From Candidatus Eiseniibacteriota bacterium (GTDB taxonomy: Bacteria > Eisenbacteria > RBG-16-71-46): DNA of 64,000 bases. Below, in pieces: positions 3,656 to 47,369 of the stretch. The stretch lies in assembly GCA_033853925.1 (NCBI GenBank), contig JAWOLC010000011.1:978-64977 (forward strand), read 5' to 3'. Each line of letters begins with the position of its first letter. Position 1 is the first letter of the stretch. The position numbers and the translations under genes are program-made. The notes under the pieces were generated by a model that was given only the letters and a program-made list of their open reading frames with translations, had not been told where the DNA came from and searched no databases.

Positions 3656-3895
3656 CGTGACAAGCGTCTCTCCTTCGGCCCGCTCTCCCGGCGCCACTAC
3701 TGACGAACTCCTGGCGCCGCTCGCGCATCCCAAGTGCAATGCCGATCCGGCCGACGATCGGCACCCCCTGTCGCGGCGGGACCGCAAGGCCGCCGCCATC
3801 GCTCCTGAGTGGTGCGAGGTGAACATGCGGGCTCTTCGCTGCCGGCCGCGTCGCGTCATGGGCTGCCGCGCCCCTTCCCCGGTCGTCCCCGCCTG

Positions 3896-5593: not shown

Positions 5594-5600
5594 GCCTCCC

Positions 5601-23747: not shown

Positions 23748-23761
23748 TGTAACCGTTTTCA
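23748..23761. promoter_or_regulatory. LacI/CcpA-type operator-like imperfect palindrome TGTAACCGTTTTCA in a lower-GC intergenic island
   Basis: 12/14 match to the perfect palindrome at 47356. Flanked by CATG as at the other site. Lies 215 bp upstream of the first gene of the secreted-cargo/GH144 cluster. A TTGACG box sits at 23727-23732. TGTAAC and CCGTTTTCA each occur twice within 23681-23761. Confidence 0.4.
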
Positions 23762-23973: not shown

Positions 23974-25878
23974 ATGAGAGCTGGACTGACCACGGCATTG
24001 CTCTTGGGCGTGGTCCTCGCCTGCGCGTCGCCAGCGCGGGCGCAGACGCCGCGCCTCGACGCCATCTGGGCCCGGTCGACGAACGGGGCCCCGATCACGC
24101 TCGACGGCATTCTGAGCGAGCCCGCTTGGGCGCAGGCGGAATCCGTCATCGTCCGCTACGGGGTGGACAACGGCATCCCCGGCAGCGGCTACCAGGAAGA
24201 GGGCGGCCGGCTCACGCGGGACAGCACGTACGCCGTCGTCAAGTTCCTGACCGTGGGGAACTACCTCTACATGGCGGCGTCGCTGCGCGACAGCTCGGTC
24301 GGCGGCGACGTGGACTTCAACAAGATCGACGGCCTGCAGATCGGGCTGAAGGATCACAGCGTGATCACGCGGCCGGCGCCGGTGCGCGAGTACTTCTACG
24401 CCTGGTGGTTCCCGACGGACACGCTCCACGCCCATGATCCCGGCCGGTCCCCCTGCTTCCGCGGCTGGTGGGCTCCGGACAGCTGCAAGCCCCGCACGCC
24501 CGAGCAGATCGACAACTGGGACGCCGTGACCGTCGTGCACGGCGTGTCCAACGACGACAGCGACACGGACCATGGCTACACGGTCGAGATGAAGTTCAAC
24601 CTGACGCCCATGGGCTACGACGTCACGAAGGCCGGGGGCGACATCGTCGAGTGGAACCTGGGCATCAAGGACGCCGACTGGAACTGGCCGCTCAACGTCA
24701 AGCGCTTCGCCTCGAACCGGACGTGGTGGCAGAGCCCGTGGTCGCTGGATGCCTGGTACGACGAGGTGCACATCTACGCCCGCCCGGACGTGTACGTCGG
24801 CTCGGGGGCCGCGCCCCTGATCCCGCCCGAGGTGCGCGTGGCCAACGCCGGCAACTGGCCCGCTCCCGTGATCGACGGCCATCTGAACGATCCCGTGTGG
24901 AGCCTGGCGCCGTCCTTCGACGTCCGCTGGGGAGACGACGCGCTGCGCGCCAGCTATCCGGGCGTGGGCCCGTGGCGCTCCGGGCAGTGGCAGCCGTCGG
25001 TGAACGACACGCTGGCCACCATCCAGGACCCGGGCGACGCCACCGTGCGCTGGTTCTTCAAGGAGGACACGCTCTACTTCGGCTTCGACGTGCGCGACCA
25101 GTACGTGCAGTACATTCCCCTGTTCACGCGCTACGACGGTGTGCAGGTGAACCTGAACGACCGCGGCGTCCGCTATCGTGACCGCAATCTCGAGGCCCGC
25201 TGGCTCACCTACCTGGTGGGGCCCACGGGCAGCGGGCTGGCCCTCGACTACCTGCCGTACCTGCGGGACACCCTGCTGGGCGCGCGCGTGGCCTGCCAGC
25301 TCAAGGGCGGCACGACCGTGGACACGATCGGCTTCGAGCCGGACTCCGGCTACACGATGGAGATGGCGATCGATCTGACGAAGCTCGGCTATCCTCACGG
25401 CCTCGGGGACCGGGCCTTGTTCCTCGGCCTCAGCCTGATGGACGGCGACTCGTTCGGCCCGTCGGGGGTCCACGACAGCTACGGCACGCACCAGTGGTGG
25501 TTCTGGCACCAGCAGCGCGAGTGCTGCCCGGTGTGGGCCTACCTGGATCCCACGCTCTACCTGACCACGGACGTGGCCGGGCCGGGCGGCGGGCAGCCCT
25601 ACACGCTGCTCGGCAACTACCCGAATCCCTTCCGGGCGCTGACCACGATCCAGTACGCGCTGGCGGCGGCGAGCGACGTCACGATCGAGGTCTTCGACGT
25701 GCAGGGGCGCCTGGTGGCGCGGCGCGTGCTCGGGCTGCAGGCGGCGGGCAAGCAGCGCGCGACGTTCTCCAACCCGGGTCTGAGGACCGGGATCTACCTC
25801 TACCGCCTGCGGGCGGCGGATCCGCTGTCGGGCAAGCAGAGAGCCGCGATGGCGGGGAAGATGCTGGTGCTGAAGTAG
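23974..25878 (+). CDS. Secreted protein with two CBM9-like (carbohydrate-binding) modules and a C-terminal FlgD-Ig-like / T9SS-type sorting domain
   Basis: AGGAGG 7 nt before ATG 23974. Signal peptide MRAGLTTALLLGVVLACASPARA. Repeated ITLDGILSEPAW / VIDGHLNDPVW modules. C-terminus GNYPNPFRALTTIQYAL...VTIEVFDVQGRLV...GIYLYRLRA...KMLVLK. Confidence 0.8.
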   Translation: MRAGLTTALLLGVVLACASPARAQTPRLDAIWARSTNGAPITLDGILSEPAWAQAESVIVRYGVDNGIPGSGYQEEGGRLTRDSTYAVVKFLTVGNYLYMAASLRDSSVGGDVDFNKIDGLQIGLKDHSVITRPAPVREYFYAWWFPTDTLHAHDPGRSPCFRGWWAPDSCKPRTPEQIDNWDAVTVVHGVSNDDSDTDHGYTVEMKFNLTPMGYDVTKAGGDIVEWNLGIKDADWNWPLNVKRFASNRTWWQSPWSLDAWYDEVHIYARPDVYVGSGAAPLIPPEVRVANAGNWPAPVIDGHLNDPVWSLAPSFDVRWGDDALRASYPGVGPWRSGQWQPSVNDTLATIQDPGDATVRWFFKEDTLYFGFDVRDQYVQYIPLFTRYDGVQVNLNDRGVRYRDRNLEARWLTYLVGPTGSGLALDYLPYLRDTLLGARVACQLKGGTTVDTIGFEPDSGYTMEMAIDLTKLGYPHGLGDRALFLGLSLMDGDSFGPSGVHDSYGTHQWWFWHQQRECCPVWAYLDPTLYLTTDVAGPGGGQPYTLLGNYPNPFRALTTIQYALAAASDVTIEVFDVQGRLVARRVLGLQAAGKQRATFSNPGLRTGIYLYRLRAADPLSGKQRAAMAGKMLVLK

Positions 25879-25900
25879 GCGCGAGATCGCGAGAGGAAGT

Positions 25901-25931
25901 GGCGGGGCGGGCCGGCAGAGTCCGCCCCGCC
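25901..25931 (+). terminator. Perfect 10-bp GC hairpin after the CBM9-like gene
   Basis: GGCGGGGCGGgccggcagagtCCGCCCCGCC. Confidence 0.4.
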
Positions 25932-25972
25932 GGGATGGACGAGTCGGAGCGGCCGGCGAGGGACCAGGGGGC

Positions 25973-28654
25973 ATGGGTCGCCAGCGGAAGGGACGTGTCG
26001 CAGGGAAGGCCTGGGTGGCGGGCCTCTGCCTGCTCTCGGCGTTGATCGCCTCGGGGGCGCTCGCCGGGACCACGGGGAAGATCTCGGGCCGGGTGCTCGA
26101 CAAGAAGAAGCAGGCCCTGGCGGGCGTGAACGTCACCATCCCGGCCGCCCGGCTGGGAGCGATCAGCGACGCCGAGGGTCGCTACACGATCATCGGCATC
26201 CCCGCCGGCACGTTCGAGGTGAAGGTGAGCCTCATGGGCTACGGGCCGGTGCTGGTGAAGGACGTCCTCGTCTCGGCGGACAACACGACGAGCCTGGACG
26301 TGGAGCTGGCCGAGGCGCCGGTGATGATGAAGGAGGTCGTGGTCTCCGCCCAGCGCCCGGTGGTGGACCTCAAGCTCACGAGCACGATGTCCACGGTGAG
26401 CCGGCAGGACATCCGCTCCCTCCCCGTCCAGGAGCTGCAGGACGTGGTCAACCTCCAGGCGGGCGTCGTGGACGGCCACTTCCGCGGCGGACGGCTGGGC
26501 GAGGTGCAGTACCAGGTGGACGGCGTCTCCGTGAACAACGCCTACGACAACACCTCCACGCTGCGCATCGACCGCTCCCTGATCGAGGAGGTGCAGGTCA
26601 TCAGCGGCACCTTCGACGCCGAGTACGGGCAGGCGATGAGCGGCGTGGTGAACGCGGTGCTGCGCCGCGGCACGGAGAAGCTGCAGTGGGACGCCGAGCT
26701 GCTCTCGGGCGGCTTCGCCTACGCGGGCGACCCGCGCGGCATCTCCTCGACCTTCCGCCAGGCGAGCCCGGCGGGCGCGCAGAACTACCAGGCGAGCCTG
26801 AGCGGGCCCGCGGGGCTGCCCCAGACGTTCTTCCTCGTGAACGGGCGGCGCTACAGCTTCGACGACTACCTGCAGGGCACGCGGCTGTTCGTCCCCACGG
26901 ACCGCTCGGCTCCCGAAGCCCTGATCGTGAACCCGACGGGAGACGGGGCCACCGTCCCGCTGGTGTACAGCCGCGAGTGGTCGGGGCTCGCCAAGGTCAC
27001 GAACCGGTCGGTCGCGAACCTCGAGCTGAACTACCAGGCCGTCGGGAGCCTGGTGAACGGCCGGCACATGACCGGCTCGACCTGGCTCTACCGACTGAAC
27101 CCCGACGGCCTCTCCAAGCAGCGCACCTTCTCCATCGTGCACGGTCTGGACGGCACCTACACGCTGTCGAAGAAGACCTTCTTCACCTCCAGCCTGCGGC
27201 AGAACTACTTCGACTACAAGGACCTGCTCTACGACGACGAGAACGACCCGCGCTACGACGCCGCCGGGCCGCCGCTGGGGAGCCAGGCGTACCAGCTCGG
27301 CGCCTACGTCCAGGGCGTGGACCTCACCCGCTTCGTGCAGAAGACGAGCACCATCGTCTGGAAGAGCTCCCTCGTGAGCCAGATGAAGAACGACCAGCAG
27401 GTCAAGGTGGGGGCCGAGTTCTCCTGGCCGCGCGTCACCTTCGGGAACCCGGGCGTGCTCACCTCGACGCAGTGGGGCAACACGCCGGTCATCGGCCGGG
27501 ACATTCCCGACTCCTACGGGATCCCGCCGCCGAGCGTCTACGAGTACCGGCCCTACGAGGCGGCCGCCTTCGCGCAGGAGGATCTGGAGTGGAACGACCT
27601 GCGCATCCGCGCCGGCCTGCGGGCCGAGTACTTCAACCCGCGGAGCATGCTGCCGGCGGATCTCCAGAACCCGGCCAACACGATCACGGGCGCCCCGGTC
27701 ACGCCCTGGCGCGCGACGACCCGCAAGATGTCGCTTGCCCCGCGGCTCGGCGTGTCGTACCCCATCACCCGGGACGCCGCGCTGTTCTTCGCCTACGGCC
27801 ACTTCTACCAGATGCCGCCGCTCGGGGACATGTTCCAGAACGCCGACTATGGGGTCCTCCGCAACCTGCAGGCAGGCGACACGAGGTACGGGGTCATGGG
27901 GAACCCCGACATCCGCCCCGAGAAGACGGTGCAGTACCAGTTCGGCTACAAGCAGGCGGTCACGGACTGGCTCGGCGTCGACCTCAACGTCTTCTACAAG
28001 GACATCCGCGACCTGCTGGGCGTCGAGTTCATCACCACCTACAACGACGCCGAGTACCCGCGGATGACGAACGTGGATTTCGGCAACGTCGTCGGGTTCA
28101 CGGTGGCGCTCGAGCAGCGGCGGCGCGGGATCGTGAGCACCTCGCTCGACTACACCTGGCAGATGGCGGAGGGGAACTCGAGCGACCCGCGGGAGACGGC
28201 GACCCGGGCGTCCGCGGGCGAGGATCCCCGGCCCCGGCAGATCCCCTTCAACTGGGACCAGCGGCACACGCTGAACCTGACCGTCATGCTCTCGCGGCCG
28301 GAGCGCTTCTCCGTGAGCACGGTCGTGCGCGTGGCCAGCGGGCAGCCCTACACCCCGGCCAGCAGCGCCTCGGGCTTCTTCCGGCTCTACGGCACGAACT
28401 CGGGGCGCAAGCCCGCCAGCGTCCTCGTGGACCTGCGCGCGGAGAAGAACCTGGTCCGCTCCCGCGTCGGCGCGAACCTGTTCGCCCGGGTGTTCAACCT
28501 GTTCGACACGAGGTACTCGAACGGCATGGTGTTCGAGTCGACCGGCAGTCCGTACTACTCGGTGGATCCGTCCGATCCCACGCTGAGGGATCCGACGCGC
28601 TTCTACGAGCCGCGGCGGATCGAGGCCGGTCTCAGCCTGAGCGCGGGCCGCTAG
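25973..28654 (+). CDS. TonB-dependent outer-membrane receptor with N-terminal carboxypeptidase-regulatory-like (CarbopepD_reg) domain and plug domain
   Basis: Signal peptide. GKISGRVLD...GVNVTI...DAEGRYTI (CarbopepD_reg). Plug: VVVSAQRP...VSRQDIRSLPVQELQDVVNLQAGVV. About 600 aa of beta-barrel follow. Confidence 0.8.
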   Translation: MGRQRKGRVAGKAWVAGLCLLSALIASGALAGTTGKISGRVLDKKKQALAGVNVTIPAARLGAISDAEGRYTIIGIPAGTFEVKVSLMGYGPVLVKDVLVSADNTTSLDVELAEAPVMMKEVVVSAQRPVVDLKLTSTMSTVSRQDIRSLPVQELQDVVNLQAGVVDGHFRGGRLGEVQYQVDGVSVNNAYDNTSTLRIDRSLIEEVQVISGTFDAEYGQAMSGVVNAVLRRGTEKLQWDAELLSGGFAYAGDPRGISSTFRQASPAGAQNYQASLSGPAGLPQTFFLVNGRRYSFDDYLQGTRLFVPTDRSAPEALIVNPTGDGATVPLVYSREWSGLAKVTNRSVANLELNYQAVGSLVNGRHMTGSTWLYRLNPDGLSKQRTFSIVHGLDGTYTLSKKTFFTSSLRQNYFDYKDLLYDDENDPRYDAAGPPLGSQAYQLGAYVQGVDLTRFVQKTSTIVWKSSLVSQMKNDQQVKVGAEFSWPRVTFGNPGVLTSTQWGNTPVIGRDIPDSYGIPPPSVYEYRPYEAAAFAQEDLEWNDLRIRAGLRAEYFNPRSMLPADLQNPANTITGAPVTPWRATTRKMSLAPRLGVSYPITRDAALFFAYGHFYQMPPLGDMFQNADYGVLRNLQAGDTRYGVMGNPDIRPEKTVQYQFGYKQAVTDWLGVDLNVFYKDIRDLLGVEFITTYNDAEYPRMTNVDFGNVVGFTVALEQRRRGIVSTSLDYTWQMAEGNSSDPRETATRASAGEDPRPRQIPFNWDQRHTLNLTVMLSRPERFSVSTVVRVASGQPYTPASSASGFFRLYGTNSGRKPASVLVDLRAEKNLVRSRVGANLFARVFNLFDTRYSNGMVFESTGSPYYSVDPSDPTLRDPTRFYEPRRIEAGLSLSAGR

Positions 28655-28664
28655 CGGGGGACAC

Positions 28665-31600
28665 GTGCGAGAACGCGGAGCGTCGTCGGCGAGAAGAAGC
28701 CCAGGGGATCCACGCTGGCTGGTCCTCCTGCTGGCGGGGCTGGGACTCGGGGCCGCCGCCGCGGCCAGCGCGGATTGCCCGACCCTCGCGCCGCCCGGGG
28801 ACCAGTCCAGGTGCGCCGACCCCGGTGGCAGGACGCGCTTCACCCTGAGCGGCACGGGGGCGGAGCAGTGCGCCTGGGTCCTGCTGCCCGGCCAGTCCAG
28901 CGGCGTCTACCGGGTCGCGCTGGGCAGCCCCACGGGCTGCGAGGTCGGCGTCGACGTCTTCAGCGACGGCCCCTGCACGGTGGCGGTGCAGTGGACGGGG
29001 CGGGCCGGCTCCGACTCGGCCTGCGTGCTGCGCGACACCGTCTACCTCGCGGTCGTCCCGGGGCCGGGCCCGCGCGGGACCATCGACGCGGAGCGCTCGG
29101 GCTTCCTCGACGCGAACCGCATCCGCACCGTGTTCTGGAACTACGGCATGGTCGGCGACTATCCGCAGGATCCCGCCAACGTGGACCTCAGCGTCTTCCA
29201 CTCCGTCGAGGTCCCGAAGGGCAGCGGGATGAACTACACGGACGGCATCACGCCCTTCGTGATGGCCCGGATCGCGCAGGCCGCGGGGGACACCGCCATC
29301 ATCATGGAGACGGGGTTCCGCGAGCGCCAGGGCATCAGCCCCCTCCACAACCGCGTCATGCGCTTCGAGCCGCGGCCGGGGTTCTTCCAGGCCGACCCGC
29401 TGATCAACCGCGGCCGCTCGCCGGCCATCAGCAACGACCCGCGCACCTGGCCCTCCGCGTGGCCCGACAAGAAGTACGACCCCGACGACGCCGGCTGGCC
29501 GGGGAGCTGGGACGGCTACTTCGGCAAGCGGGCGGCGGCGGACGAGGAGAGCTTCACCGTCATGGACGACGACTTCTACGACGCCTGGGACTACGCGCCC
29601 GACGCCTGCGACCCGGACCGGCGCGGTCTCGGTCTCAAGGTCGAGGTGCGCGGCTTCCAGTGGGCGAACCCGCAGGCCGGGAACGTCGTCTTCTGGCACT
29701 ACGACATCACCAACGAAAGCACCACCGACTACGACGACAACATCATCTTCGGCCTCTACATGGACTCGGGGGTCGGAGGCTCCGCGCTCTCCTGCGACGG
29801 CATCTACGAGTCGGACGACGACAACGCCTACTTCGACCGCTCCTCCGGCCTCAACCTGGTCTACACCTGGGACACCTACGGGCACGGCGTGGATCTGGCG
29901 GGCAACTGCAGCCCGACCGGCTACCTCGGCTACGCCTACATGGAGACACCCGGCAATCCCTACGACGGCATCGACAACGACAACGACGGCATCACCGACG
30001 AGTCTCGCGACGGCGGTCCCGGCCAGCTCATCGTCGGGCAGACGGCGATCCGCGAGTACGCGGCGGCGCACTACGACCTGGCCAAGTTCGAGGCGTTCTA
30101 CGGCCCGCTCGAGAACCGGCCCGCCTACCGCGCCGGGCGCTGGTGGACCGGGGACGAGGACATGGACTGGACGGCGGAGTTCGACGACGTCGGCGCGGAC
30201 GGCGTCCCCAACACCTTCGACACCGGCGAGGGCGACGGCATCCCCACCGACGGCGAGCCGCATTTCGACCGCACCGACAAGGACGAGTCGGACCAGATCG
30301 GGCTCACCGGCTTCAAGATGAACCGGATCAAGGCCGGCGTGGGGAATCCGAACCCCGCCACGGACGACATCCTCTTCTACACCGACGCCCACCACTGGCC
30401 CGAGCGGCTGTGGCAGCACTTCACCGATCCCAACCCGGCTGCCCGCTTCGACTCCGCGGTGGCCGCGAACTACAACATCGGCTTCCTCTTCGCCTCCGGT
30501 CCCTTCAAGCTGCCGCCCGGGAAGCGGGAGCGCTTCAGCCTGGCGCTGGCCTACGGGCAGGACCTCGCCGAGCTGCGCGAGACCGTGCACACGGTGCAGC
30601 TCATCTACAACGCGAATTACCAGTTCGCCGTGCCGCCCACGCTGCCGACCGCCTCGGCCGAGGCGGGCGACGGCTACGTCCGGCTCTCGTGGGACGACGC
30701 GGCGGAGCGCAGCCTCGACCCGGTCACGAACACCTTCGACTTCGAGGGGTACCGCATCTACCGGGCGACGGATCCCGAGTTCCGCGATCCGCAGATCGTG
30801 CCCACCGGCTCGACCCAGCTCTGGCTGCCCAACGGCAAGCCCATCGCCCAGTTCGATCTCGCGGACGGGCGGAAGGGCTACTCGCGCAAGGTGATCAACG
30901 GCATCGGCTACTACCTCGGCACGGACAGCGGGATCCGCCACACCTGGACCGACACCACGGTGACGAACGGCCAGGAGTACTACTACGCGGTCTGCGCGTA
31001 CGACTACGGCTACGACCCGGGCGCGGACTCCTTGGCCATCTACCCGTCGGAGAATTCGATCACGGTCTCGCGCACGCCCCGGGGCGGCCTGATCCTGCCC
31101 AGGAACGTGGTGCAGGTGCGGCCCAATCCGAGAGTGCCGGGCTACGTGCCCGGCTCGTCGAGCGGGGTGACCAAGGTCGCGGGGAACGGCACCGGCGCCG
31201 TGGGCATCCGGGTCGTGAACTCGGGCCTCGTCCCCGACGGGCATCTGTTCACGGTCGGCTTCGTCACCACCTCACCCGACAGCATCCACGCCACGAGCTA
31301 CGTGCTCCGGGACAGCACCTCGCGGCGCACGCTCTTCTCGACGGGCTCCGACTTCGACAGCCTGGGGACGGGCCCTTCCGGCGCCGGCTTGCTGCCGCTC
31401 GTCAGATCGGTCGAGCAGTGCAGCGTGGACGGCAGGGCCTCCGGATTCCGCTCGGGCAGCGGCACGAACGTGACGCTCTCCACCTACTACGCCAACAGCG
31501 CGATGCCCATGAACCTGAAGCGGCTCGGCTACCCGGACAACCTCACGATCGTGTTCGACAGCACCTTCGCCGACACGGGCCTGGGCTGGGGGCCGGTGCG

Positions 31601-32258
31601 GCGGAACCCGGCGAAGTTCCAGCTCTGGGCCCACACGGACACGGGCGACGTGCGTCTCAAGTTCCGCTTCAACGACCTGCCCTCGGGCAGGGGAGACGGC
31701 ACGCTCGACTCGCTGGGCGAGTGGATCGAGGTCATCGCCCCCGGCCCGCCGGTGCGCGTGGACTCGCTCGTGGCCTGGCGCATCCAGGTGGATCCGAGCG
31801 GGCCGCACGGCCGCCCCGACGTGGTCCCGCCCGGTGCCGGCGACGTCTACGACCTGGTCGTGGTCCGCCCCCTGAACCCCTCGGACCGCTTCCTCTTCAG
31901 CAGCGGCGGCGAGCGCGTCGACGCCGCGAAGGCCGCGACGGACTACGCCAGCAAGCCCTACGTGGTGCCCAATCCGTACGTGGGCGCCGCCGCCTTCGAG
32001 CCCGAGCGCTTCGCCGTCTCGGGGCGCGGCGACCGGCGCATGGAATTCCGCAACCTGCCGCAGAACGCCACGGTGCGCATCTACACCGTGCGCGGCGACC
32101 TCGTGCGCACCCTGCGCCAGGACGGCTCGCTGAACGGCTACGTGGCCTGGGACCTGCGCACCAAGGACAACCTGGACGTGGCTCCGGGCCTCTACATCTT
32201 CCACGTCGAAGCTCCCGGCGCGAACGGCTACGTCGGGAAGTTCGCGATCATCAAATGA
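28665..32258 (+). CDS. Large (1197 aa) secreted protein of unknown function with FN3-like region and C-terminal FlgD-Ig-like / T9SS-type sorting domain
   Basis: GTG start 11 nt after the upstream stop. Signal peptide. Asp-rich putative Ca-binding stretch GIDNDNDGITDESRDGG. C-terminus VVPNPYVGAAAFEP...VRIYTVRGDLVRTL...GYVAWDLRTKDNLDVAPGLYIFHVEA...KFAIIK. Confidence 0.8.
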   Translation: MRERGASSARRSPGDPRWLVLLLAGLGLGAAAAASADCPTLAPPGDQSRCADPGGRTRFTLSGTGAEQCAWVLLPGQSSGVYRVALGSPTGCEVGVDVFSDGPCTVAVQWTGRAGSDSACVLRDTVYLAVVPGPGPRGTIDAERSGFLDANRIRTVFWNYGMVGDYPQDPANVDLSVFHSVEVPKGSGMNYTDGITPFVMARIAQAAGDTAIIMETGFRERQGISPLHNRVMRFEPRPGFFQADPLINRGRSPAISNDPRTWPSAWPDKKYDPDDAGWPGSWDGYFGKRAAADEESFTVMDDDFYDAWDYAPDACDPDRRGLGLKVEVRGFQWANPQAGNVVFWHYDITNESTTDYDDNIIFGLYMDSGVGGSALSCDGIYESDDDNAYFDRSSGLNLVYTWDTYGHGVDLAGNCSPTGYLGYAYMETPGNPYDGIDNDNDGITDESRDGGPGQLIVGQTAIREYAAAHYDLAKFEAFYGPLENRPAYRAGRWWTGDEDMDWTAEFDDVGADGVPNTFDTGEGDGIPTDGEPHFDRTDKDESDQIGLTGFKMNRIKAGVGNPNPATDDILFYTDAHHWPERLWQHFTDPNPAARFDSAVAANYNIGFLFASGPFKLPPGKRERFSLALAYGQDLAELRETVHTVQLIYNANYQFAVPPTLPTASAEAGDGYVRLSWDDAAERSLDPVTNTFDFEGYRIYRATDPEFRDPQIVPTGSTQLWLPNGKPIAQFDLADGRKGYSRKVINGIGYYLGTDSGIRHTWTDTTVTNGQEYYYAVCAYDYGYDPGADSLAIYPSENSITVSRTPRGGLILPRNVVQVRPNPRVPGYVPGSSSGVTKVAGNGTGAVGIRVVNSGLVPDGHLFTVGFVTTSPDSIHATSYVLRDSTSRRTLFSTGSDFDSLGTGPSGAGLLPLVRSVEQCSVDGRASGFRSGSGTNVTLSTYYANSAMPMNLKRLGYPDNLTIVFDSTFADTGLGWGPVRRNPAKFQLWAHTDTGDVRLKFRFNDLPSGRGDGTLDSLGEWIEVIAPGPPVRVDSLVAWRIQVDPSGPHGRPDVVPPGAGDVYDLVVVRPLNPSDRFLFSSGGERVDAAKAATDYASKPYVVPNPYVGAAAFEPERFAVSGRGDRRMEFRNLPQNATVRIYTVRGDLVRTLRQDGSLNGYVAWDLRTKDNLDVAPGLYIFHVEAPGANGYVGKFAIIK

Positions 32259-33283
32259 GCGCCCGCGCGAGCACGAGTCGGCGGATCCTGGCCGGGGTGG
32301 CGGCGCTGCTGCTGGCGGCCCTGCCGGCCTGGGGCCAGAGCAAGACGGGCACCACGATCGGCCAGTTCCTGCTGATCGAGCCCAGCGCGCGCATCGCCGG
32401 CATGGGGAACGCCGGGGTGGCGATCGCCGACGGCCTGGACGCGGTCTACTTCAACCCGGCGACGATCGGGCTGCTGCGGGGCTACAACGTGCAGTTCACG
32501 CACAGCGCCTGGCTGGCCGACATCCGCTTCGACTACGCGGCGGCCTCGATTCCCCTCGGCAAGTGGGGCAGCGCGGTGGCCAGCGTGACGGCCCTGAACT
32601 CCGGGGCCATGGACGTGCGCACGGTCTCGCAGCCCCTGGGCACGGGGGAGACGTTCTCCGTGTCCGACGTGGCCCTCGGGCTGGGGTACGGGCGGCAGAT
32701 CACCGACCGCTTCTCCACGGGCGCCCAGATCCAGTACGTGCAGGAGACGATCTGGCACAGCTCGCTGAGCACGGTCGTGCTCGACCTGGGCACGCTGTAC
32801 CGGATCTCGGACCGCGGGCTCAGGATCGGCGCGAGCCTGTCGCACCTGGGCACGCAGGGGCGCTTCGCGGGCCGGGATCTGAACGTCGTCTACGACAACG
32901 ACCCGAGCCGGTACGGCGACAACGGCACGCTGCCCGGCGACATGTTCACCAGCGACTTCTCGGTCCCGACGCTCTTCCGCGTGGGCCTCGGCCTGCCGTT
33001 CCAGTTCGGGCCGCGGGCGCGGCTGGACCTCGCGGCGGACGCCTTCCACCCGGCCGACAATTCCGAGGGCCTGAGCGCGGGGGCGGAGTTCCGCTACGCG
33101 CGCGTCCTCTCGCTGCGGGCCGGCTGGCAGGACGCGTTCCAGCAGGACACCGAGGTCGGCCTGACGCTGGGCGCCGGATTGCAGGGGAAGGTGGACGTGT
33201 ACGGATACCGGGTCGACTACGGTTGGGCGGATCACAGGCGGCTGGGCGGCACGCATCGCCTGACCATCCAGCTCGCGTTCTAG
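32255..33283 (+). CDS. PorV/PorQ-family (UPF0164-like) outer-membrane beta-barrel
   Basis: ATG overlaps the upstream stop (ATGA). Signal peptide. Hallmark N-terminal motif SARIAGMGNAGVAIADGLDAVYFNPA. Alternating beta-strand pattern to a C-terminal aromatic (QLAF). It is the last 343 codons of the listed 1502-aa artefact ORF. Confidence 0.75.
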   Translation: MSARASTSRRILAGVAALLLAALPAWGQSKTGTTIGQFLLIEPSARIAGMGNAGVAIADGLDAVYFNPATIGLLRGYNVQFTHSAWLADIRFDYAAASIPLGKWGSAVASVTALNSGAMDVRTVSQPLGTGETFSVSDVALGLGYGRQITDRFSTGAQIQYVQETIWHSSLSTVVLDLGTLYRISDRGLRIGASLSHLGTQGRFAGRDLNVVYDNDPSRYGDNGTLPGDMFTSDFSVPTLFRVGLGLPFQFGPRARLDLAADAFHPADNSEGLSAGAEFRYARVLSLRAGWQDAFQQDTEVGLTLGAGLQGKVDVYGYRVDYGWADHRRLGGTHRLTIQLAF

Positions 33284-33347
33284 GGCGGGAGATCGCGGCC
33301 CGCCCGCAAGACGAGACGGCCGAGGAAGGCCGACGGGAGAGGTGGAC

Positions 33348-34919
33348 ATGCGCAACTGCATCCTGGCGTTCCTCGTGCTCCTGGGCGGGGCCGCCGACGC
33401 GAGGGCTCAGAGCACGGCGGCCGTCCTGGACACGATCCAGCACGCCACCTTCGACTACTTCTGGTACGAGGCGAACGCCGCGAACGGCCTGATCAAGGAT
33501 CGCAGCACCGCCACCTCCCCGGCGAGCATCGCGGCGGTGGGCTTCGGGCTCTCGGCCATCTGCGTGGGCGTCGACCACGGCTGGATCACGCGCGAGGCGG
33601 GCCGCGACCGGGTCCTCACCACCCTCCGCACGTTCTGGTACGGCCCGCAGGGAAGCGGCGCCAGCGGCATCATCGGCTACAAGGGGCTCTTCTACCACTG
33701 GCTCGACATGAGCACCGCGACCCGCACCTGGAGCTGCGAGCTGTCCACGATCGACACGGCCCTGCTGATGGCCGGCATCCTGGACAGCAAGCAGTACTTC
33801 ACCGGCGGCGACGCGGCGGAGGACTCGATCCGGACCCTGGCGGACGCGATCTACCAGCGGGCGGACTGGGAGTTCATGCGCAACGGCGCCCAGGGGATCT
33901 ACATGGGCTGGAAGCCCGGCACGGGCTTCTCCGGCTACGGCCTCTGGCAGGGCTACAACGAGGCCATGATCCTCTACCTCCTGGCCCTCGGCTCGCCCAC
34001 GCATCCGGTGCCGGCGAGCACCTGGACGTACTGGATGAGCGGCTACCAGTGGACCACGCAGTACGGCCAGACCTACATCATCTTCCCGCCGCTCTTCGGC
34101 CACCAGTACTCGCACTGCTGGGTCGACTTCCGCACGAGCCAGGACGCCTTCATGCGCGTCAAGGGCATCACCTACTTCGAGAACTCGCGGCGGGCCACGC
34201 TGGCCCAGCGGGCCTACGCGGCGGCCAATCCCTACGGCTGGACCGGCTACAGCGACAGCCTCTGGGGGCTGACCGCCTCCGACATCAAGAACGGCTACAG
34301 CGCCCGCGGCGCGCCGCCGACGCAGAACGACGACGGCACCATCACGCCCAGCGCGCCGGGGGGCTCGATCGCCTTCGCCCCCGACGAGGTGATCCCGGTG
34401 CTGCGCAACCTGTACCTGAACTATCCCGCGGCCTGGGGCACCTACGGCTTCCGGGACGCCTTCAACCTGAGCCTCAATCCGGACTGGTACGATACGGACT
34501 TCCTCGGCATCGACGAGGGGCCGATCGTGCTGATGATCGAGAACTACCTGCACTCCTCGGTCTGGCTGCGCTTCAATCGGAACCCGGACGTCCAGCGCGG
34601 GCTCGAGCGGGCGGGCTTCACCGCCATTGCCGCGGTCGGTCCGGGCCCGGGGGCGGAGGCCGAGCTGGCCGCCTGGAGCGAGCCCAACCCGTTCACGGGC
34701 TCGGCCACCGTGCGCTTCCGCCTGCCCGCGGCGGGCCCCGTGCGTCTGGCCGTTTTCGATCTGGGCGGCCGGCGGGTCGCGACTCTGCTCGACGGGACGC
34801 GCCCTGCGGGCGAACATGCGGTGACCTGGCGGGCCGCGGGGGCGCCGAGCGGCGTGTACTTCGTCCGGCTCGAAGCGGGTGGCCGATCGGTGACGCGGCG
34901 TTGCGTGCGGCTCGAATGA
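33348..34919 (+). CDS. Secreted GH144-like (glucoamylase-like PF10091 domain; endo-beta-1,2-glucanase family) enzyme with C-terminal FlgD-Ig-like / T9SS-type sorting domain
   Basis: GGGAGAGG before ATG 33348. Signal peptide. Motifs FGHQYSHCWVDFR, FENSRRATLAQRAY, DFLGIDEGPIVLMIENY. C-terminal NPFTGSATVRFRLP...VRLAVFDLGGRRVATL...GVYFVRLEAGGRSVTRRCVRLE. Confidence 0.75.
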   Translation: MRNCILAFLVLLGGAADARAQSTAAVLDTIQHATFDYFWYEANAANGLIKDRSTATSPASIAAVGFGLSAICVGVDHGWITREAGRDRVLTTLRTFWYGPQGSGASGIIGYKGLFYHWLDMSTATRTWSCELSTIDTALLMAGILDSKQYFTGGDAAEDSIRTLADAIYQRADWEFMRNGAQGIYMGWKPGTGFSGYGLWQGYNEAMILYLLALGSPTHPVPASTWTYWMSGYQWTTQYGQTYIIFPPLFGHQYSHCWVDFRTSQDAFMRVKGITYFENSRRATLAQRAYAAANPYGWTGYSDSLWGLTASDIKNGYSARGAPPTQNDDGTITPSAPGGSIAFAPDEVIPVLRNLYLNYPAAWGTYGFRDAFNLSLNPDWYDTDFLGIDEGPIVLMIENYLHSSVWLRFNRNPDVQRGLERAGFTAIAAVGPGPGAEAELAAWSEPNPFTGSATVRFRLPAAGPVRLAVFDLGGRRVATLLDGTRPAGEHAVTWRAAGAPSGVYFVRLEAGGRSVTRRCVRLE

Positions 34920-34976: not shown

Positions 34977-36041
34977 ATGGCGACGATCCGAGACGTGGCG
35001 CGGGCGAGCAACGTGTCCATCGCCACGGTGTCGCGGGTGTTCAACCAGAGCCCGCTCGTGAGCGAGGACACGCGCCAGCGCGTGGTCGCCGCGGCGAGCC
35101 GCCTGGGCTACTGGCCCAACGGTATCGCCCGCAGCCTCATCACCAACCGCACGCACACCCTCGGGCTCCTCCTCCCGGACCTGCACGGGGAGTTCTTCTC
35201 GGAGGTCATCCACGGGGTCGACCTCAAGGCGCGGGAGAGAGGCTTCCACCTGCTCGTGTCCCGCTCCAGCTCGAGCGCCGAGGAGCTGACGGACGCGCTG
35301 CGCGCCATGCGCGGCCGGGTGGACGGCCTCATCGTCATGGCGCCGGACGTGGACGCTTCGCGGGCGCTGCGCAGCGCGGCGGGCAACGTCCCCATCGTGC
35401 TCCTGAACCCGGAGGTGGAGCTGCCGGGCTCCGACACCGTCGGGATCGACAACCTGCACGGGGCGGCGACGATCGTCCACCACCTGATCGACCTCGGCAA
35501 CCGCCGCATCGCCACGATCACGGGGCCGGGCCAGAACATCGACGCGCGCCAGCGGCTCGACGGCTATCGCGCGGCGCTGCGGGAGGCCGGCCTCGCGCCC
35601 GACCCCGACCTCGAGTTCCACGGGGACTTCACGGAGCGGTCGGGGTACGAGGCGGCCCGGGCGATTCTGCGTCAGCGCAGCGGCGCCACGGCGATCTTCG
35701 TGGCCAACGACCACATGGCCATCGGCGTGATCGGCGCGCTCCAGGAGGCGGGCATGCGGGTGCCCGACGACATCGCCGTCACGGGCTTCGACGACATCCC
35801 GATGGCGCGCTACCTGACGCCGCCGCTCACGACCATGCACGTGAACATGCTGCAGATCGGGGAGCGGGCGGTCGAGCTGCTGGTGGACCCGGAGCGGGTG
35901 GCCGGCCCTCCCGAGGGTCGGCACGAGGTGCTGCCCACGACGCTGGTCGTGCGGGAGTCGTGCGGGGCCCGCCGGCCGCGCCGCAGCGGGGGGGCGCCGG
36001 GCTGGGATCGCGGCGAGCCTCCCGCCGCGGTGCCGCGCTGA
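34977..36041 (+). CDS. LacI-family transcriptional regulator
   Basis: HTH MATIRDVARASNVSIATVSRVFN. Periplasmic-binding-protein-like sugar-binding core. Confidence 0.9.
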   Translation: MATIRDVARASNVSIATVSRVFNQSPLVSEDTRQRVVAAASRLGYWPNGIARSLITNRTHTLGLLLPDLHGEFFSEVIHGVDLKARERGFHLLVSRSSSSAEELTDALRAMRGRVDGLIVMAPDVDASRALRSAAGNVPIVLLNPEVELPGSDTVGIDNLHGAATIVHHLIDLGNRRIATITGPGQNIDARQRLDGYRAALREAGLAPDPDLEFHGDFTERSGYEAARAILRQRSGATAIFVANDHMAIGVIGALQEAGMRVPDDIAVTGFDDIPMARYLTPPLTTMHVNMLQIGERAVELLVDPERVAGPPEGRHEVLPTTLVVRESCGARRPRRSGGAPGWDRGEPPAAVPR

Positions 36042-36049
36042 AGCCGGCC

Positions 36050-37513
36050 GTGGCCCTCCGCTCGCGCACCCGTCCGGCCGCCGGCCGCCGCGTGGCGCTC
36101 GCGGCGCTCCTCGTCCTGGTCGCGGCCTTGGGCTGCCGCGACGGCTTCACGGCGCGCGGCCCGCGTGGCCCCGCCCCCTCCGGCGAGACCGCCTTCCTCG
36201 ACACGCTCGAGTTGCGCACCTTCCGCTGGTTCTGGGAGCTGAGCGATTCCCGCACGGGGCTGACGCCGGATCGCTGGCCGAGCAAGTCGTTCTCGAGCGT
36301 GGCGGCGGTGGGCTTCGCGCTCACGGCCTACCCGATCGGGGCGGAGCGCGGCTACGTGACCCGGGCGGCCGCCTGCGAGCGCACGCTGGCCACGCTCCGC
36401 TTCTTCTGGACCGCGCCCCAGGGCTCCGCGGCGCGGGGCTGCACCGGCTACCACGGCTTCTTCTACCACTTCCTCGAGCCCGTGAGCGGCCAGCGCTTCG
36501 AGCGCGTGGAGCTCTCCACGATGGACACCGCGCTCCTCCTCGCGGGGGCGCTCTTCTGCCAGTCCTACTTCGACCGCGCGGACCCGCGCGAGGCGGAGGT
36601 GCGCGCCCTGGCCGAGTCGCTCTACGCGCGCGCGGACTGGCGCTGGGCACTGGTGCGGCCGCCCATGATCGTGCACGGCTGGACCCCCGAGGAGGGCTTC
36701 CTGCCCTGGGACTGGCAGGGCATGAACGAGTCCATGCTGGTTCCCATCCTGGCGCTCGGCTCGCCCACGCACCCGGTCGAGCCCGCGGTCTGGTCCTACT
36801 GGATGGGGGGCTGCCGCTGGGGCTCGTTCCAGGGCGTGGAGCACTTCGGCTTCGCGCCGCTCTTCGGCCACCAGTTCACCCAGGTCTGGCTCGACCTGCG
36901 CGGGCTCAGGGACAGCACCCTGCGGGCGCGGGGGATCGACTGGTTCGAGAACTCTCGACGGGCCACCCTCGCCCAGCGGGCCTACTGTCTGGCCAACCCC
37001 GGCGGCTTCCGCGGCTACGGAGCCGATCTCTGGGGGCTCACCGCCTGCGACGGGCCGCTCAACGACACGGTGGCGGTGGCCGGGCGCAGGCTCCGCTTCG
37101 AGACCTACGCCGCGCGCGGGGCCGGCGTCCAGCGCGTCTCCGACGACGGCACGATCTCGCCGGCCGCGGCCGGCGGCTCGATCGCCTTCGCGCCCGAGCT
37201 GGTGATCCCCACGCTGCAGGCCATGCGCCGCACCTACGGCGAGAACCTGTTCTCGCGGTACGGCTTCGTGGACGCGCTCAATCCGACGCTGGACGTGGCG
37301 GTACCCGTGCAGCACGGGCGGGTGATCCCGGGCACCGGCTGGTTCGACACCGACTACCTGGGGATCGACCAGGGCCCGATCCTGGCCATGCTCGAGAACT
37401 GGCGCAGCGGGCTCGTGTGGCGGACCATGCGGAAGAACGCGCACGTCGTCCGCGGCCTCGTGGCCGCGGGGTTCACGGGCGGATGGCTGGACTCGCTCTC
37501 CCGGGCCCGCTGA
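36050..37513 (+). CDS. GH144-like (glucoamylase-like domain) lipoprotein, paralog of 33348..34919
   Basis: GTG start giving M-ALRSRTRPAAGRRVALAALLVLVAALGC (lipobox LGC). Same conserved blocks as the paralog (FGHQFTQVWLDLR, FENSRRATLAQRAY, DYLGIDQGPILAMLEN). Start is uncertain; the listed ATG 35960 overlaps the lacI gene. Confidence 0.7.
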   Translation: MALRSRTRPAAGRRVALAALLVLVAALGCRDGFTARGPRGPAPSGETAFLDTLELRTFRWFWELSDSRTGLTPDRWPSKSFSSVAAVGFALTAYPIGAERGYVTRAAACERTLATLRFFWTAPQGSAARGCTGYHGFFYHFLEPVSGQRFERVELSTMDTALLLAGALFCQSYFDRADPREAEVRALAESLYARADWRWALVRPPMIVHGWTPEEGFLPWDWQGMNESMLVPILALGSPTHPVEPAVWSYWMGGCRWGSFQGVEHFGFAPLFGHQFTQVWLDLRGLRDSTLRARGIDWFENSRRATLAQRAYCLANPGGFRGYGADLWGLTACDGPLNDTVAVAGRRLRFETYAARGAGVQRVSDDGTISPAAAGGSIAFAPELVIPTLQAMRRTYGENLFSRYGFVDALNPTLDVAVPVQHGRVIPGTGWFDTDYLGIDQGPILAMLENWRSGLVWRTMRKNAHVVRGLVAAGFTGGWLDSLSRAR

Positions 37514-38814
37514 CGAGCCGGGCCGCGCGGGCGCTCGCCGTGGCGGGCCTCGTGGCGCTCGCCGGCTGCCGCGGCGCCGGCGAGGCGCGGACGACCGTGC
37601 GCTTCTGGGCGATGGGGCGCGAGGGCGAGGTCGTCCAGGAGCTGGTCCGCGACTTCGAGCGCGAGAATCCCACGGTGCGCGTGATCGTCCAGCAGATGCC
37701 CTGGGACGCGGCGCACGAGAAGCTGCTCACCGCCTTCGTGGGACGCTCCACGCCCGACCTCGCCCAGCTCGGCAACACCTGGATCCCCGAGTTCGTCGCG
37801 CTGCGCGCCGTGGAGCCGCTCGGCCCCTGGCTCGCGGGCTCCCGGGCCGTGGCGGAGTCCTCGTACTTCGCCGGCATCTGGGACACCAACGTGGTGGACG
37901 GCGTGCCCTACGGCGTGCCCTGGTACGTGGACACCCGCGTGCTCTTCTACCGCCGCGACCTGCTCCGGCAGGCCGGCTGGGACTCGATCCCGGGCGGCTG
38001 GAGCGAGTGGCTGCGGGCCATGGAGGACGTGAAGCGCCTGGGCCGCGGCCGCTTCGCCATCTTCCTCCCCACGAACGAGTACACGCCCTGGATCGTGCTC
38101 GGCATGCAGGCGGGCTCGCCGCTCCTGCGCGACGGAGAGTCGCGCGGGGACTTCTCGGGACCCGAGTACCGGCGCGCCGCCGCCTTCTATCTCGAGGTGT
38201 TTCGCCGCGGGCTCGCCCCGAACGTGGCCGGGGCCACGATCGCCAACCGCTACCAGGAGTTCGAGCGCGGCACGTTCGCCATGTACATCAGCGGCCCGTG
38301 GGACGTGGGCGAGTTCGGGCGCCGGTTGTCTCCGGCCATGAAGGGGGCCTGGTTCATCGCCACGCTCCCCGGCCCCGACGGCCCGGCCAGCGGCGTCTCC
38401 TCCGCCGGCGGCTCGAGCCTCGTGCTCTTCCGCGACTCCCGCCACAAGCGCGAGGCGTGGCGCCTCGTGGAGTACCTCTCGCGGCCCGAGGTGCAGCTCC
38501 GCTTCCAGCGGCTGTGCGGGAACCTGCCCGCGCGGCTCGAGGCCTGGCGCGACTCGTCCCTGGCGAACGATCCCTTCGCCCGCGTGTTCGAGCGGCAGCT
38601 CCGGCGCGTGGTCTCGACGCCGAAGGTGCCCGAGTGGGAGAACATCTCGAAGAGCCTCCAGGACTGCGTCGAGTCCATGGTGCTCGGGCACGCGCCGCCC
38701 GATTCGGCGCTGGCGAGCCTGGATCGGCGGGTGGACCGCATCCTCGAGAAGCGGCGCTGGCTCCTGGAGCGGGAGCGGCGGCGCGTGGCGGGCGGGACGG
38801 CGGAGGCGCGATGA
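37480..38814 (+). CDS. ABC transporter sugar-binding lipoprotein (SBP family 1)
   Basis: Lipobox LVALAGC. Typical oligosaccharide-SBP sequence. The start overlaps the upstream gene by about 34 nt; an alternative GTG is at 37540. Confidence 0.8.
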   Translation, partial: RMAGLALPGPLTSRAARALAVAGLVALAGCRGAGEARTTVRFWAMGREGEVVQELVRDFERENPTVRVIVQQMPWDAAHEKLLTAFVGRSTPDLAQLGNTWIPEFVALRAVEPLGPWLAGSRAVAESSYFAGIWDTNVVDGVPYGVPWYVDTRVLFYRRDLLRQAGWDSIPGGWSEWLRAMEDVKRLGRGRFAIFLPTNEYTPWIVLGMQAGSPLLRDGESRGDFSGPEYRRAAAFYLEVFRRGLAPNVAGATIANRYQEFERGTFAMYISGPWDVGEFGRRLSPAMKGAWFIATLPGPDGPASGVSSAGGSSLVLFRDSRHKREAWRLVEYLSRPEVQLRFQRLCGNLPARLEAWRDSSLANDPFARVFERQLRRVVSTPKVPEWENISKSLQDCVESMVLGHAPPDSALASLDRRVDRILEKRRWLLERERRRVAGGTAEAR

Positions 38815-39704
38815 GGGGCGCGATCGAGCTGCGGCAGCATCGCGCGGGCTGGGCGTTCGTGGCGCCCGCGCTGGTCCTGATCGGCGTCTTCTTCTTCGTG
38901 CCGGTGCTGGCCGGACTCGTGCTCAGCTTCACCGACTTCGACATCTACGCCATCGGCCGGCCGAGCGTCGCGCGCTTCGTGGGCCTGCGCAACTACGCCG
39001 ACGTGCTGGCGAACCCGCTCTTCTGGAAGGCCCTGGGCAACACGCTCTACTTCGTGCTCCTGGGCGGACCGCTCTCGGTCGTGACCTCGCTGGTGGCGGC
39101 CCTGCTCGTCAGCTCGAAGCTCACCCGCCTGCAGGGGCTCTTCCGCTCCATCTTCTTCATGCCGGTCGTCACCACGCTCGTGGCCGTGGCGGTCGTGTGG
39201 CGCTACCTCTACCAACCCGAGTACGGGCTGGCGAACTGGGCCCTCCGGGCCTTCGGGATCCGCCCCGTGGACTGGCTGGGCGACCCGCACTGGGCCATGC
39301 TCGCCATCATCCTCATGGCCGTGTGGAAGAACTTCGGCTACAACATGCTCATCTTCGTGGCCGGGCTGCAGGGCATCCCCGAGGAGCTGTACGAGGCCGC
39401 CGAGCTGGACGGCGCCAGCCCCTGGGCGCGCTTCGTCCACATCACCCTGCCCAGCCTGGGGCCCACCTTCCTCTTCGTGGGCGTCATCACCATGCTCGGC
39501 AACTTCCAGCTCTTCGCCGAGCCCTACGTGATGACCCAGGGCGGCCCGCTCAAGGCCACGACCACGCTGGTGATGCTCATGTACGAGGAGGGCTTCCGCT
39601 GGTGGCGCATGGGAGCGGGGGCCGCCATCGCCTTCCTCCTCTTCGTCCTCATGATGGCGGGCACGCTCCTGCAGATGCGCCTGCAGCGGGAGACGCGCAG
39701 GTGA
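38811..39704 (+). CDS. ABC sugar transporter permease (MalF/UgpA-like)
   Basis: ATG overlaps the upstream stop (ATGA). EAA-type loop EAAELDGASPWARFVHITLP. Six TM segments. Confidence 0.85.
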   Translation: MRGAIELRQHRAGWAFVAPALVLIGVFFFVPVLAGLVLSFTDFDIYAIGRPSVARFVGLRNYADVLANPLFWKALGNTLYFVLLGGPLSVVTSLVAALLVSSKLTRLQGLFRSIFFMPVVTTLVAVAVVWRYLYQPEYGLANWALRAFGIRPVDWLGDPHWAMLAIILMAVWKNFGYNMLIFVAGLQGIPEELYEAAELDGASPWARFVHITLPSLGPTFLFVGVITMLGNFQLFAEPYVMTQGGPLKATTTLVMLMYEEGFRWWRMGAGAAIAFLLFVLMMAGTLLQMRLQRETRR

Positions 39705-47355: not shown

Positions 47356-47369
47356 TGTAAACGTTTACA
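47356..47369. promoter_or_regulatory. Perfect 14-bp LacI/CcpA-type operator palindrome TGTAAACGTTTACA (central CG)
   Basis: Exact self-complement. Matches the LacI-family consensus TGnAAnCGnTTnCA. Lies in a 715-bp intergenic region, 242 bp upstream of the minus-strand gene start (47114) and 460 bp upstream of 47829. Confidence 0.55.

Follow-up and report, generated by a model that had tools for sequence, protein, structure and literature searches.

A receptor, a large exported protein and a PorQ-like barrel as putative outer-membrane core of a predicted beta-1,2-glucan utilisation locus in Candidatus Eiseniibacteriota

Polysaccharide utilisation loci are now recognised mainly through the SusC/SusD pair, as it occurs in the Bacteroidia. 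We compare with them a locus in a 64,000-nucleotide stretch of DNA from a Candidatus Eiseniibacteriota bacterium (GCA_033853925.1, contig JAWOLC010000011.1, positions 978 to 64,977 of the forward strand), hereafter the window, whose central element is a run of three genes encoding a TonB-dependent receptor, a 1197-residue protein (protein X) and an outer-membrane barrel of the PorV/PorQ family. In common with SusC/SusD loci, the predicted gene products form a co-regulated cluster with a CarboxypepD_reg-type TonB importer, a surface glycan-binding protein and a surface endo-glycanase, together with enzymes that trim in the periplasm, an importer of the inner membrane and a regulator of its own, and a partner gene lies directly downstream of the transporter gene. 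The differences lie at the outer membrane, where there is no SusD and the transporter fails the SusC/RagA model (57 versus 368 bits). The partner here is a beta-rich protein of 1100-1200 residues with a signal peptidase I signal and a C-terminal domain (CTD) like those in type IX secretion systems (T9SS), whereas SusD is a helical lipoprotein of about 550 residues. Moreover, a third obligatory gene encodes the barrel, and the surface proteins carry CTDs rather than lipoprotein signals.

Three further described systems resemble parts of the locus. In the PorZ-PorQ and PorU-PorV pairs, which belong to the T9SS attachment complex of Porphyromonas gingivalis, a surface protein sits by a retained CTD on a cognate 14-stranded PorV-family barrel, an arrangement that for X is proposed only. 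The CTD of X matches theirs and the best specific match of the barrel is PorQ; in contrast, no likeness of X to PorZ or PorU can be detected outside the CTD, and X and its barrel occur in catabolic loci beside a TonB receptor, in several paralogous copies, and score under the equivalog cut-offs. The TbpA-TbpB-Slam system of Neisseria combines a TonB receptor, a surface partner that captures the ligand and a small barrel that serves this partner alone. The three-gene logic is the same, but the barrel here is of the PorV/PorQ rather than the DUF560 family, the partner is not a lipoprotein and the predicted ligand is a glycan rather than iron. Finally, clusters for beta-1,2-glucans and sophoro-oligosaccharides are known from Chitinophaga pinensis (the GH144 enzyme Cpin_6279), Xanthomonas (XCC2207) and Listeria innocua (Lin1839-1841). 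Like these, the locus combines a GH144 endo-beta-1,2-glucanase and a GH94-type phosphorylase with an ABC importer whose binding protein is Lin1841-like. Unlike them, it couples this pathway to the receptor-X-barrel core and to sorting of the T9SS type; its GH94 protein also lies closer to cellobiose phosphorylases, and to the GH94 domain of cyclic glucan synthase, than to any solved 1,2-beta-oligoglucan phosphorylase.

Judged by these comparisons of sequence, the catabolic pathway belongs to a familiar type, while the outer-membrane core is neither SusC/SusD nor PorZ/PorU/PorV/PorQ proper. We tentatively propose, at somewhat less than even confidence, that the receptor-X-barrel triad is a widespread and previously undescribed glycan-import machine of non-Bacteroidia lineages of the Fibrobacteres-Chlorobi-Bacteroidetes (FCB) group, in which a T9SS-exported protein of about 1100 residues, seated on a PorQ-like barrel, substitutes for SusD. 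Among the lineages meant are Eisenbacteria, Ignavibacteria, Calditrichota, KSB1, Latescibacterota, Krumholzibacteriia and Kryptoniota. A search of open-access literature text found no description of the triad, nor of T9SS in Eisenbacteria. The triad and the two genes that flank it are as follows.

23974-25878, + strand: CTD-bearing protein of 634 aa, ATG start after GAGGAGG
25973-28654, + strand: TonB-dependent receptor of 893 aa, with CarboxypepD_reg, Plug and TonB barrel
28665-32258, + strand: protein X, 1197 aa, GTG start, member of a large unannotated family
31950-32258, + strand: CTD of X (residues 1096-1197, VVPNPY...GKFAIIK)
32255-33280, + strand: PorV/PorQ-family barrel of 341 aa, matching NF033709
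33348-34919, + strand: GH144 protein of 523 aa with T9SS CTD, matching PF10091 and TIGR04183

The window has a GC content of 69-77%, and lists of raw open reading frames are therefore noisy; real genes were separated from this noise by codon-position GC analysis, in which the five genes show coding-type third-position values of 0.92-0.98. A first-pass annotation, made from the letters alone, had placed the three CTD proteins on one strand at these coordinates and the receptor and barrel among them, with an ATGA overlap of X stop and barrel start at 32255-32258 and with the C-terminal ends LVLK, AIIK and VRLE on the CTD proteins, all of which agrees with the translations. Its description of a self-contained unit for polysaccharide binding, degradation and import also stands, in that T9SS-type surface proteins accompany a TonB-dependent receptor.

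The receptor is of the CarbopepD_reg/plug TonB-dependent type, as first annotated, with all scores above their cut-offs (PF00593, 92.9 bits against 27; PF07715 Plug, 33.9 against 23.9; PF13715 CarbopepD_reg_2, 69.6), and a TonB-box-like KEVVVSAQR follows its N-terminal domain. An assignment to SusC/RagA was rejected, TIGR04056 giving 57.1 bits against a cut-off of 368 and covering the N-terminal domain only. Across 23.9 to 50.3 kb, no called gene gave a match to a SusD family.

We collected orthologues of X at 60-75% identity from 80 species-level genomes and traced synteny by tblastn of the window proteins, the counts below covering loci with enough flanking sequence. The nearest loci, at 74-75% identity, lie in metagenome-assembled genomes (MAGs) of Candidatus Eisenbacteria. 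Most orthologues carry that label, and others are labelled Ignavibacteria, KSB1/Zhuqueibacter, Krumholzibacteriia, Latescibacterota, Caldithrix and Kryptoniota, with some MAGs labelled Gemmatimonadetes, Fibrobacteraceae and Bacteroidota. These labels are those of the MAG records, and some records are clearly mis-binned. Four loci (L008, L009, L011 and L038) sit in MAGs labelled Candidatus Udaeobacter, Limnocylindria, Saccharimonadaceae and Actinokineospora, lineages in which T9SS-type CTDs are unexpected, and the labels most likely reflect binning contamination.

In all 74 orthologous loci the barrel gene lies directly 3' of X (median gap about -1.5 nt), and the receptor gene lies directly 5' of X in 62 of 64, with genes for GH144, GH94 and LacI proteins nearby. 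The order receptor, X, PorV-family barrel also holds in 9 of 9 contexts of paralogous X proteins, which are about 34-44% identical. In these paralogous modules a CTD protein precedes the receptor wherever upstream flank is present and not gene-free, and a LacI regulator and an ABC importer are usually nearby. The accompanying enzymes vary, being GH26 with GH16, GH130 with or without GH94, three GH3 with a GH5, or GH144 with GH94. One such module occurs in the cultured Rosettibacter firmus. For five of the paralogous modules, tblastn with the proteins of the window gave alignments at 33-40% identity that span almost the whole of the receptor, of X and of the barrel, while the upstream protein shares only its CTD with the 634-aa protein. 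The triad therefore appears to be inherited as a unit, with the binding protein and enzymes as its variable parts, and the best reading is that it would be a generic, substrate-independent core reused with other sets of carbohydrate-active enzymes (CAZymes). A Delongbacteria-labelled MAG (locus L087) carries a beta-1,2-glucan locus, with a CTD-bearing GH144 and a GH94, in which the triad is only 33-38% identical, so that divergence of the triad does not simply track substrate. A previous study found susCD genes to be scarce in the CAZyme clusters of Ignavibacteriales, where the machinery must differ (PMC10576277).

The barrel belongs to the PorV/PorQ family, as the first-pass annotation had proposed, matching NF033709 at 181.4 bits (cut-off 90) over profile positions 1-324 of 326. 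The FadL/TodX family (PF03349, Toluene_X) was considered and set aside at 20 bits against a gathering threshold of 29.7. Within its family the barrel fails every equivalog model, namely PorQ (NF033711, 86.6 of 220 bits), PorV (NF033710, 59.5 of 250) and PorV2 (43.5 of 325), PorQ giving the best of the specific NCBIfam scores. Its only match by sequence in the PDB is PorV (6H3I). By its profile scores, then, the barrel is placed on a separate branch of the PorV/PorQ family.

The CTDs of the three CTD proteins are not all alike. The 634-aa protein passes both general models (TIGR04183, 34.5 bits against 23; PF18962, 28.7 against 27), with a type-A T9SS CTD at about residues 545-634. The GH144 protein encoded at 33348-34919 passes TIGR04183 (30.9 bits, same cut-off) and falls just under PF18962 (23.1 against 27). 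The isolated CTD of X from the window, however, scores only 15.9 bits with TIGR04183, under the cut-off, and is outscored there by its matches to the C-termini of PorZ (NF052228, 33.2 bits) and PorU (NF033707). Among nine isolated CTDs from the X family, the PorZ and PorU C-termini matched all nine and the generic type-A model seven. The first-pass annotation had put the three CTDs in one class; three CTDs do exist and two exceed the TIGR04183 cut-off, but that of X is not a standard type-A domain. The domains also differ in conservation. The CTD of X (residues 1096-1197) has a median identity of 74.5% across 81 loci, and between paralogues it is 47-56% identical against 34-40% for the whole protein. 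The CTDs of the two cargo proteins reach a median of only 44-45% in orthologous loci, below their own bodies (50% and 64%), and the cargo genes, unlike the X/barrel pair, vary in position among loci.

PorZ and PorU, both T9SS proteins, keep their CTDs and stay attached to the PorQ and PorV barrels (PMC10202324, PMC11285876), and a review proposes that cognate PorV-like barrels shield such CTDs from cleavage (PMC10202324). We hypothesize, with a slight lean in favour, that the CTD of X is likewise retained, as a docking domain for the barrel encoded downstream. By the same slight preference we regard X and the barrel as matched anchoring partners after the fashion of PorZ and PorQ, because the two genes are translationally coupled by ATGA and constantly adjacent, with one barrel per module, and because the CTD of X resembles those of PorZ and PorU and is so much better conserved than the cargo CTDs.

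An alternative would treat the three CTD proteins as equivalent cargoes, with the barrel acting as a PorV-type shuttle from the translocon to the attachment complex and X as a large secreted binding protein. All three proteins indeed have CTD-like domains, the barrel is a member of the PorV/PorQ family, and PorV is a known shuttle (PMC10202324). Yet the CTD of X stands at 74.5% identity against 44-45% for the other two, and falls under the type-A cut-off while matching PorZ and PorU. Moreover, the barrel is always operon-linked to X and not to the cargoes of varying position, each paralogous module has a barrel of its own whereas one PorV serves all cargo in the species studied, and the PorV equivalog is failed by a wide score difference (59.5 versus 250). 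A role as general shuttle is unlikely, and the dedicated shuttle for three cargoes of the first-pass annotation is probably wrong, given the ties of the barrel to X, its separate copy in each module and the distinct CTD.

The likeness to PorZ and PorU also raises the possibility of a locus-specific attachment or processing complex, PorU-PorV-like or PorZ-PorQ-like, that cleaves or anchors the cargoes of the locus. The CTD of X and its barrel resemble those of these complexes, PorZ is the top structural match to X (see below), and porU and porV are adjacent in Bacteroidota. We consider this very unlikely, since X lacks the invariant Cys and His of a PorU-type dyad, nothing in the secondary-structure readout points to beta-propellers of the PorZ type (no inspection of domain folds was made), the TM-scores of 0.10-0.14 suggest that PorZ superposes on little beyond one small domain, and such a complex would not explain why the linkage to a TonB-dependent receptor is so strict. 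Identification of X with either protein was rejected: as PorZ it scores 28.6-33.2 bits against an equivalog cut-off of 260, over the last ~70 residues only in the scan of the isolated CTD, and as a PorU-like sortase it has no invariant Cys/His dyad and matches NF033707 through its CTD only.

Protein X itself has no match to a Pfam family, and searches by sequence against the PDB returned only a marginal FN3 match. At least 1149 homologues exist, all unnamed and without a precomputed Pfam domain. When 1.84 billion cluster representatives were searched with a profile, 869 clusters at 50% identity were recovered with E<1e-30 and 3200 with E<1e-10. A look-up by exact sequence gave no record of X from the window. 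X begins with a signal peptide of the signal peptidase I type, with no lipobox, followed at residues ~38-130 by a Cys-rich extension of about 90 residues (residues 1-130 are encoded at 28665-29054). This extension, whose fold is predicted at low confidence only, is common only to the closest relatives (P0002, P0005 and P0008), most orthologues beginning near residue 110-130. The remainder comprises a beta-sandwich head with DxDxDG acidic loops (131-660), an FN3-like domain (661-830), a poorly conserved beta-sandwich stalk (831-1095) and the CTD. Median identities in orthologous loci are 73-74% for the head (137-660), 66% for the FN3-like domain and 41% for the stalk. At 63.5% overall, X leads the envelope proteins in conservation, the receptor standing at 56% and the barrel at 55%.

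An AlphaFold2 (AF2) model built with 22 close orthologues reached a pLDDT of only 49, with the head unresolved, while a model of residues 131-1197 from 118 sequences, including paralogues of 37-44% identity, reached a pLDDT of 88.8 and a pTM of 0.83. From the secondary structure of the latter, read along with the conservation profile, we propose a large beta-sandwich head with a helix-and-loop insert rich in DxDxDG-type motifs, followed by a long helix, the FN3-like domain, two further beta-sandwich domains and the CTD. The pattern of helices and strands gives no sign of a catalytic barrel, and the earlier description of X as a protein with no recognisable catalytic domain is borne out by this model and by the lack of a Pfam match. 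Foldseek against the PDB placed PorZ first (E 2.9e-7, TM only 0.10-0.14); the output does not report the aligned residues, and the match probably covers little more than one small domain, the CTD. Next came probability-1.0 matches to GH94, GH149 and other glycan-active enzymes, with a query-normalised TM of ~0.18. These enzymes share a non-catalytic N-terminal beta-supersandwich. The modelled head may therefore resemble the non-catalytic beta-supersandwich of GH94/GH15-like enzymes, at the level of fold only; an hhalign probability of 0.4% gives no support for homology to the GH94 N-domain. We prefer to read X as a partner at the cell surface that has no catalytic role, because it has a signal peptide and no lipobox, the family alignments contain no invariant Cys or His, the model lacks a catalytic barrel, the fold matches are to non-catalytic domains, and no SusD was found in the locus, whose receptor is not of the SusC family.

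Against this stands the proposal that X is an enzyme of a new family, a surface glycanase, a lyase or a modifier of the cell's own surface, with conserved acids as its active site. The head is very highly conserved and holds several invariant Asp, Glu, Arg and Trp residues; beta-sandwich glycanases exist, and the family has no annotation that would speak against an enzyme. However, the same head occurs beside chemically different glycans, to judge from the associated enzymes (GH26/GH16, GH130, GH3/GH5 and GH144), each locus already has fitting CAZymes, many of the acids fall in DxDxDG-type motifs that we read as calcium loops, and the fold matches are to non-catalytic domains. An enzymatic X is therefore rather improbable.

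For the non-catalytic surface partner, we propose the following sequence of events. Inducing oligosaccharides would relieve a LacI repressor at two operators, and the three CTD proteins would then cross the outer membrane by a T9SS that is presumably encoded elsewhere in the genome. The type-A CTDs of the 634-aa protein and the GH144 would be removed or exchanged for a surface anchor. X would keep its CTD and dock on the barrel of the overlapping gene, in the manner of PorZ with PorQ and PorU with PorV, and its conserved, calcium-loop-rich beta-sandwich head would thereby come to lie beside or over the receptor. There the head might capture the oligosaccharides released by the GH144, or gate their entry into the receptor, doing the job that SusD does for SusC. 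Past the outer membrane, the CTD-less GH144 would trim the oligosaccharides in the periplasm, the ABC system would import them and the GH94 would phosphorolyse them in the cytoplasm. Taken as a whole, that X is exported by T9SS, docked on its own barrel and a SusD-like partner of the receptor is to our minds evenly balanced between right and wrong; the SusD-like role taken by itself is more tentative, and we hold it a little below an even chance.

Several points weigh against this proposal. Contact of X with the receptor or the barrel is deduced from gene arrangement and conservation, and retention of the CTD is argued from its conservation and from weak profile matches, that to PorZ being 33 bits against an equivalog cut-off of 260. 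Conservation of the head extends over modules that serve different glycans, and the X protein of the beta-1,2-glucan locus L087 is only 38% identical, so that X may not recognise substrate at all. Invariant acids such as E295 and D302 (full-length numbering) could be catalytic instead of calcium or sugar ligands. The likeness to the supersandwich is partial, as the TM and hhalign values above indicate. Lastly, a T9SS core in this genome is presumed: none of its genes (sprA/sov, porK/L/M/N, porU/V) is among the ~45 genes of the window.

This last point, together with a gene architecture of receptor, surface partner and small barrel, leaves room for a Slam-like route, independent of T9SS, in which X would be carried to the surface by the 14-stranded barrel itself, much as the Slam barrel of Neisseria displays TbpB beside the receptor TbpA. 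We hold such a route to be the least probable of the alternatives and highly improbable in itself. The barrel belongs to the PorV/PorQ family (its likeness to the DUF560 Slam family was not separately compared), X has a T9SS-like CTD and no lipobox, the bona fide type-A CTDs of its neighbours imply a T9SS, and passage of a folded protein of 1100 residues through a small barrel is implausible. None of the alternatives accounts as well as the anchored surface partner for the rule of one barrel per module, the conservation of the CTD and the strict linkage to the receptor.

The five genes at 23974-34919 are a real cluster, but the first-pass annotation drew its unit too narrowly, since the locus runs from ~23.7 to 47.4 kb. 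This region is very probably a LacI-controlled beta-1,2-glucan utilisation locus, of which 23974-34919 is best read as the cell-surface half. Its remaining features are listed here.

23748-23761, + strand: LacI-type operator TGTAACCGTTTTCA, matching the consensus
34977-36041, + strand: LacI-family protein, predicted repressor (PF00356, 64.1 bits; PF13377, 137.7 bits)
36050-37513, + strand: second GH144 protein, no CTD (PF10091, 256.9 bits)
37417-40522, + strand: ABC importer, one solute-binding protein and two permeases (SBP_bac_1, 134.5 bits; two BPD_transp_1 matches), exact start codons uncertain
40543-43698, + strand: F5/8 type C protein of 1051 aa (PF00754, 65.9 bits)
43749-46139, - strand: GH94 phosphorylase, predicted cytoplasmic (PF17167, 359.7 bits; PF06165, 271.2 bits)
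46278-47114, - strand: secreted protein of 278 aa, from its translation; no family found
47356-47369, + strand: second LacI-type operator, the perfect palindrome TGTAAACGTTTACA, matching the consensus
47829-50252: GH35-like gene, from profile searches of the downstream genes

The substrate is assigned from the PDB relatives of the GH144, the ABC binding protein and the GH94. For the surface protein at 33348-34919, the GH144-like identity first suggested is confirmed by PF10091 at 264.9 bits and by its PDB relatives, the top match being 8XUL (deposited as XCC2207, 371.6 bits), followed by 5GZH (deposited as an endo-beta-1,2-glucanase, 173.5 bits) and 5Z06. By these matches, the CTD-bearing GH144 is a predicted surface endo-beta-1,2-glucanase. 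The second GH144, in which no profile matched a CTD, is presumed periplasmic. The ABC solute-binding protein matches PDB chains deposited as the Lin1841 protein (5YSB, 233.9 bits), which we take to be the sophoro-oligosaccharide binder of Listeria. The GH94 protein finds its best PDB match in the GH94 domain of cyclic beta-1,2-glucan synthase (465 bits), with cellobiose phosphorylases slightly behind (435 bits); it is a predicted phosphorylase. A weak match to the oligosaccharide amylase model TIGR01577 (GH15-like), and conservation in some related beta-1,2-glucan loci, make the 1051-aa F5/8 type C protein a candidate for a further glucan-active enzyme.

The 634-aa protein is putatively a surface glycan-binding protein, with a homologue at this position in 58 of 58 orthologous loci. 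It had been called CBM9-like, a label that lacks direct support for this protein, as it has no PF06452 match even at E<=5; faint or clear CBM9_1 matches occur only in the proteins at the equivalent position of other loci. No relative in the PDB was found for it by sequence search.

The LacI protein is the predicted repressor of the locus. The operator consensus TGNAANCGNTTNCA has exactly two matches in the 64 kb, against 0.00 expected, and the two sites bracket the glucan locus. The site at 23748 falls within an AT-rich island, some 210 nt upstream of the gene that opens the plus-strand operon, and that at 47356 lies between the divergent minus-strand operon and the GH35-like gene. The motif recurs in 51 of 89 related loci, just upstream of the LacI gene or of the first gene of the module in those loci checked against gene maps, and a second operator precedes the homologue of the 278-aa gene in several of them.

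The 278-aa protein has no transmembrane segment and no match to a Pfam or NCBIfam family, and its homologues occur in 32 related loci (e.g. L012, L018, L020, L022, L031 and L034). A Thr/Pro-rich linker leads to a conserved extreme C-terminal tail, TWGKLKTLYR, which in the family takes the form [ST]WGx[LIVM]Kx[LIVM][YF][RK]-stop. In locus L001 the 278-aa-type domain is duplicated and a T9SS CTD stands in place of the tail, so that the tail may be an alternative, undescribed sorting or anchoring signal.

Elsewhere in the window, at 3812-13485, a gene for an FHA-GAF-SpoIIE phosphatase is followed by three Ser/Thr kinase genes in a row, whose products of ~860-990 aa carry C-terminal PD40 beta-propeller repeats. 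This tandem signalling array has no connection with the glucan locus. Scanning the window against Rfam and for tRNAs gave no matches.

Beta-1,2-glucans are the cyclic and periplasmic glucans of Proteobacteria, and the locus suggests that Eisenbacteria-like soil bacteria scavenge them. SusC/SusD genes are scarce or absent in the CAZyme clusters of Ignavibacteriales and Kapabacteria (PMC10576277), and the glycan-uptake machinery of those groups is therefore largely uncharted. If our proposal is true, the triad could mark polysaccharide utilisation loci where detection based on SusC/SusD finds little, and would be a practical marker for such loci in phyla of soil, sediment and groundwater. The presence of a paralogous module in Rosettibacter firmus, a cultured carrier, makes the system testable. 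The roles of PorV-like barrels and of retained CTDs would widen past the T9SS attachment complex. More generally, T9SS would be seen to build nutrient-uptake complexes, beyond its secretion of enzymes and adhesins.

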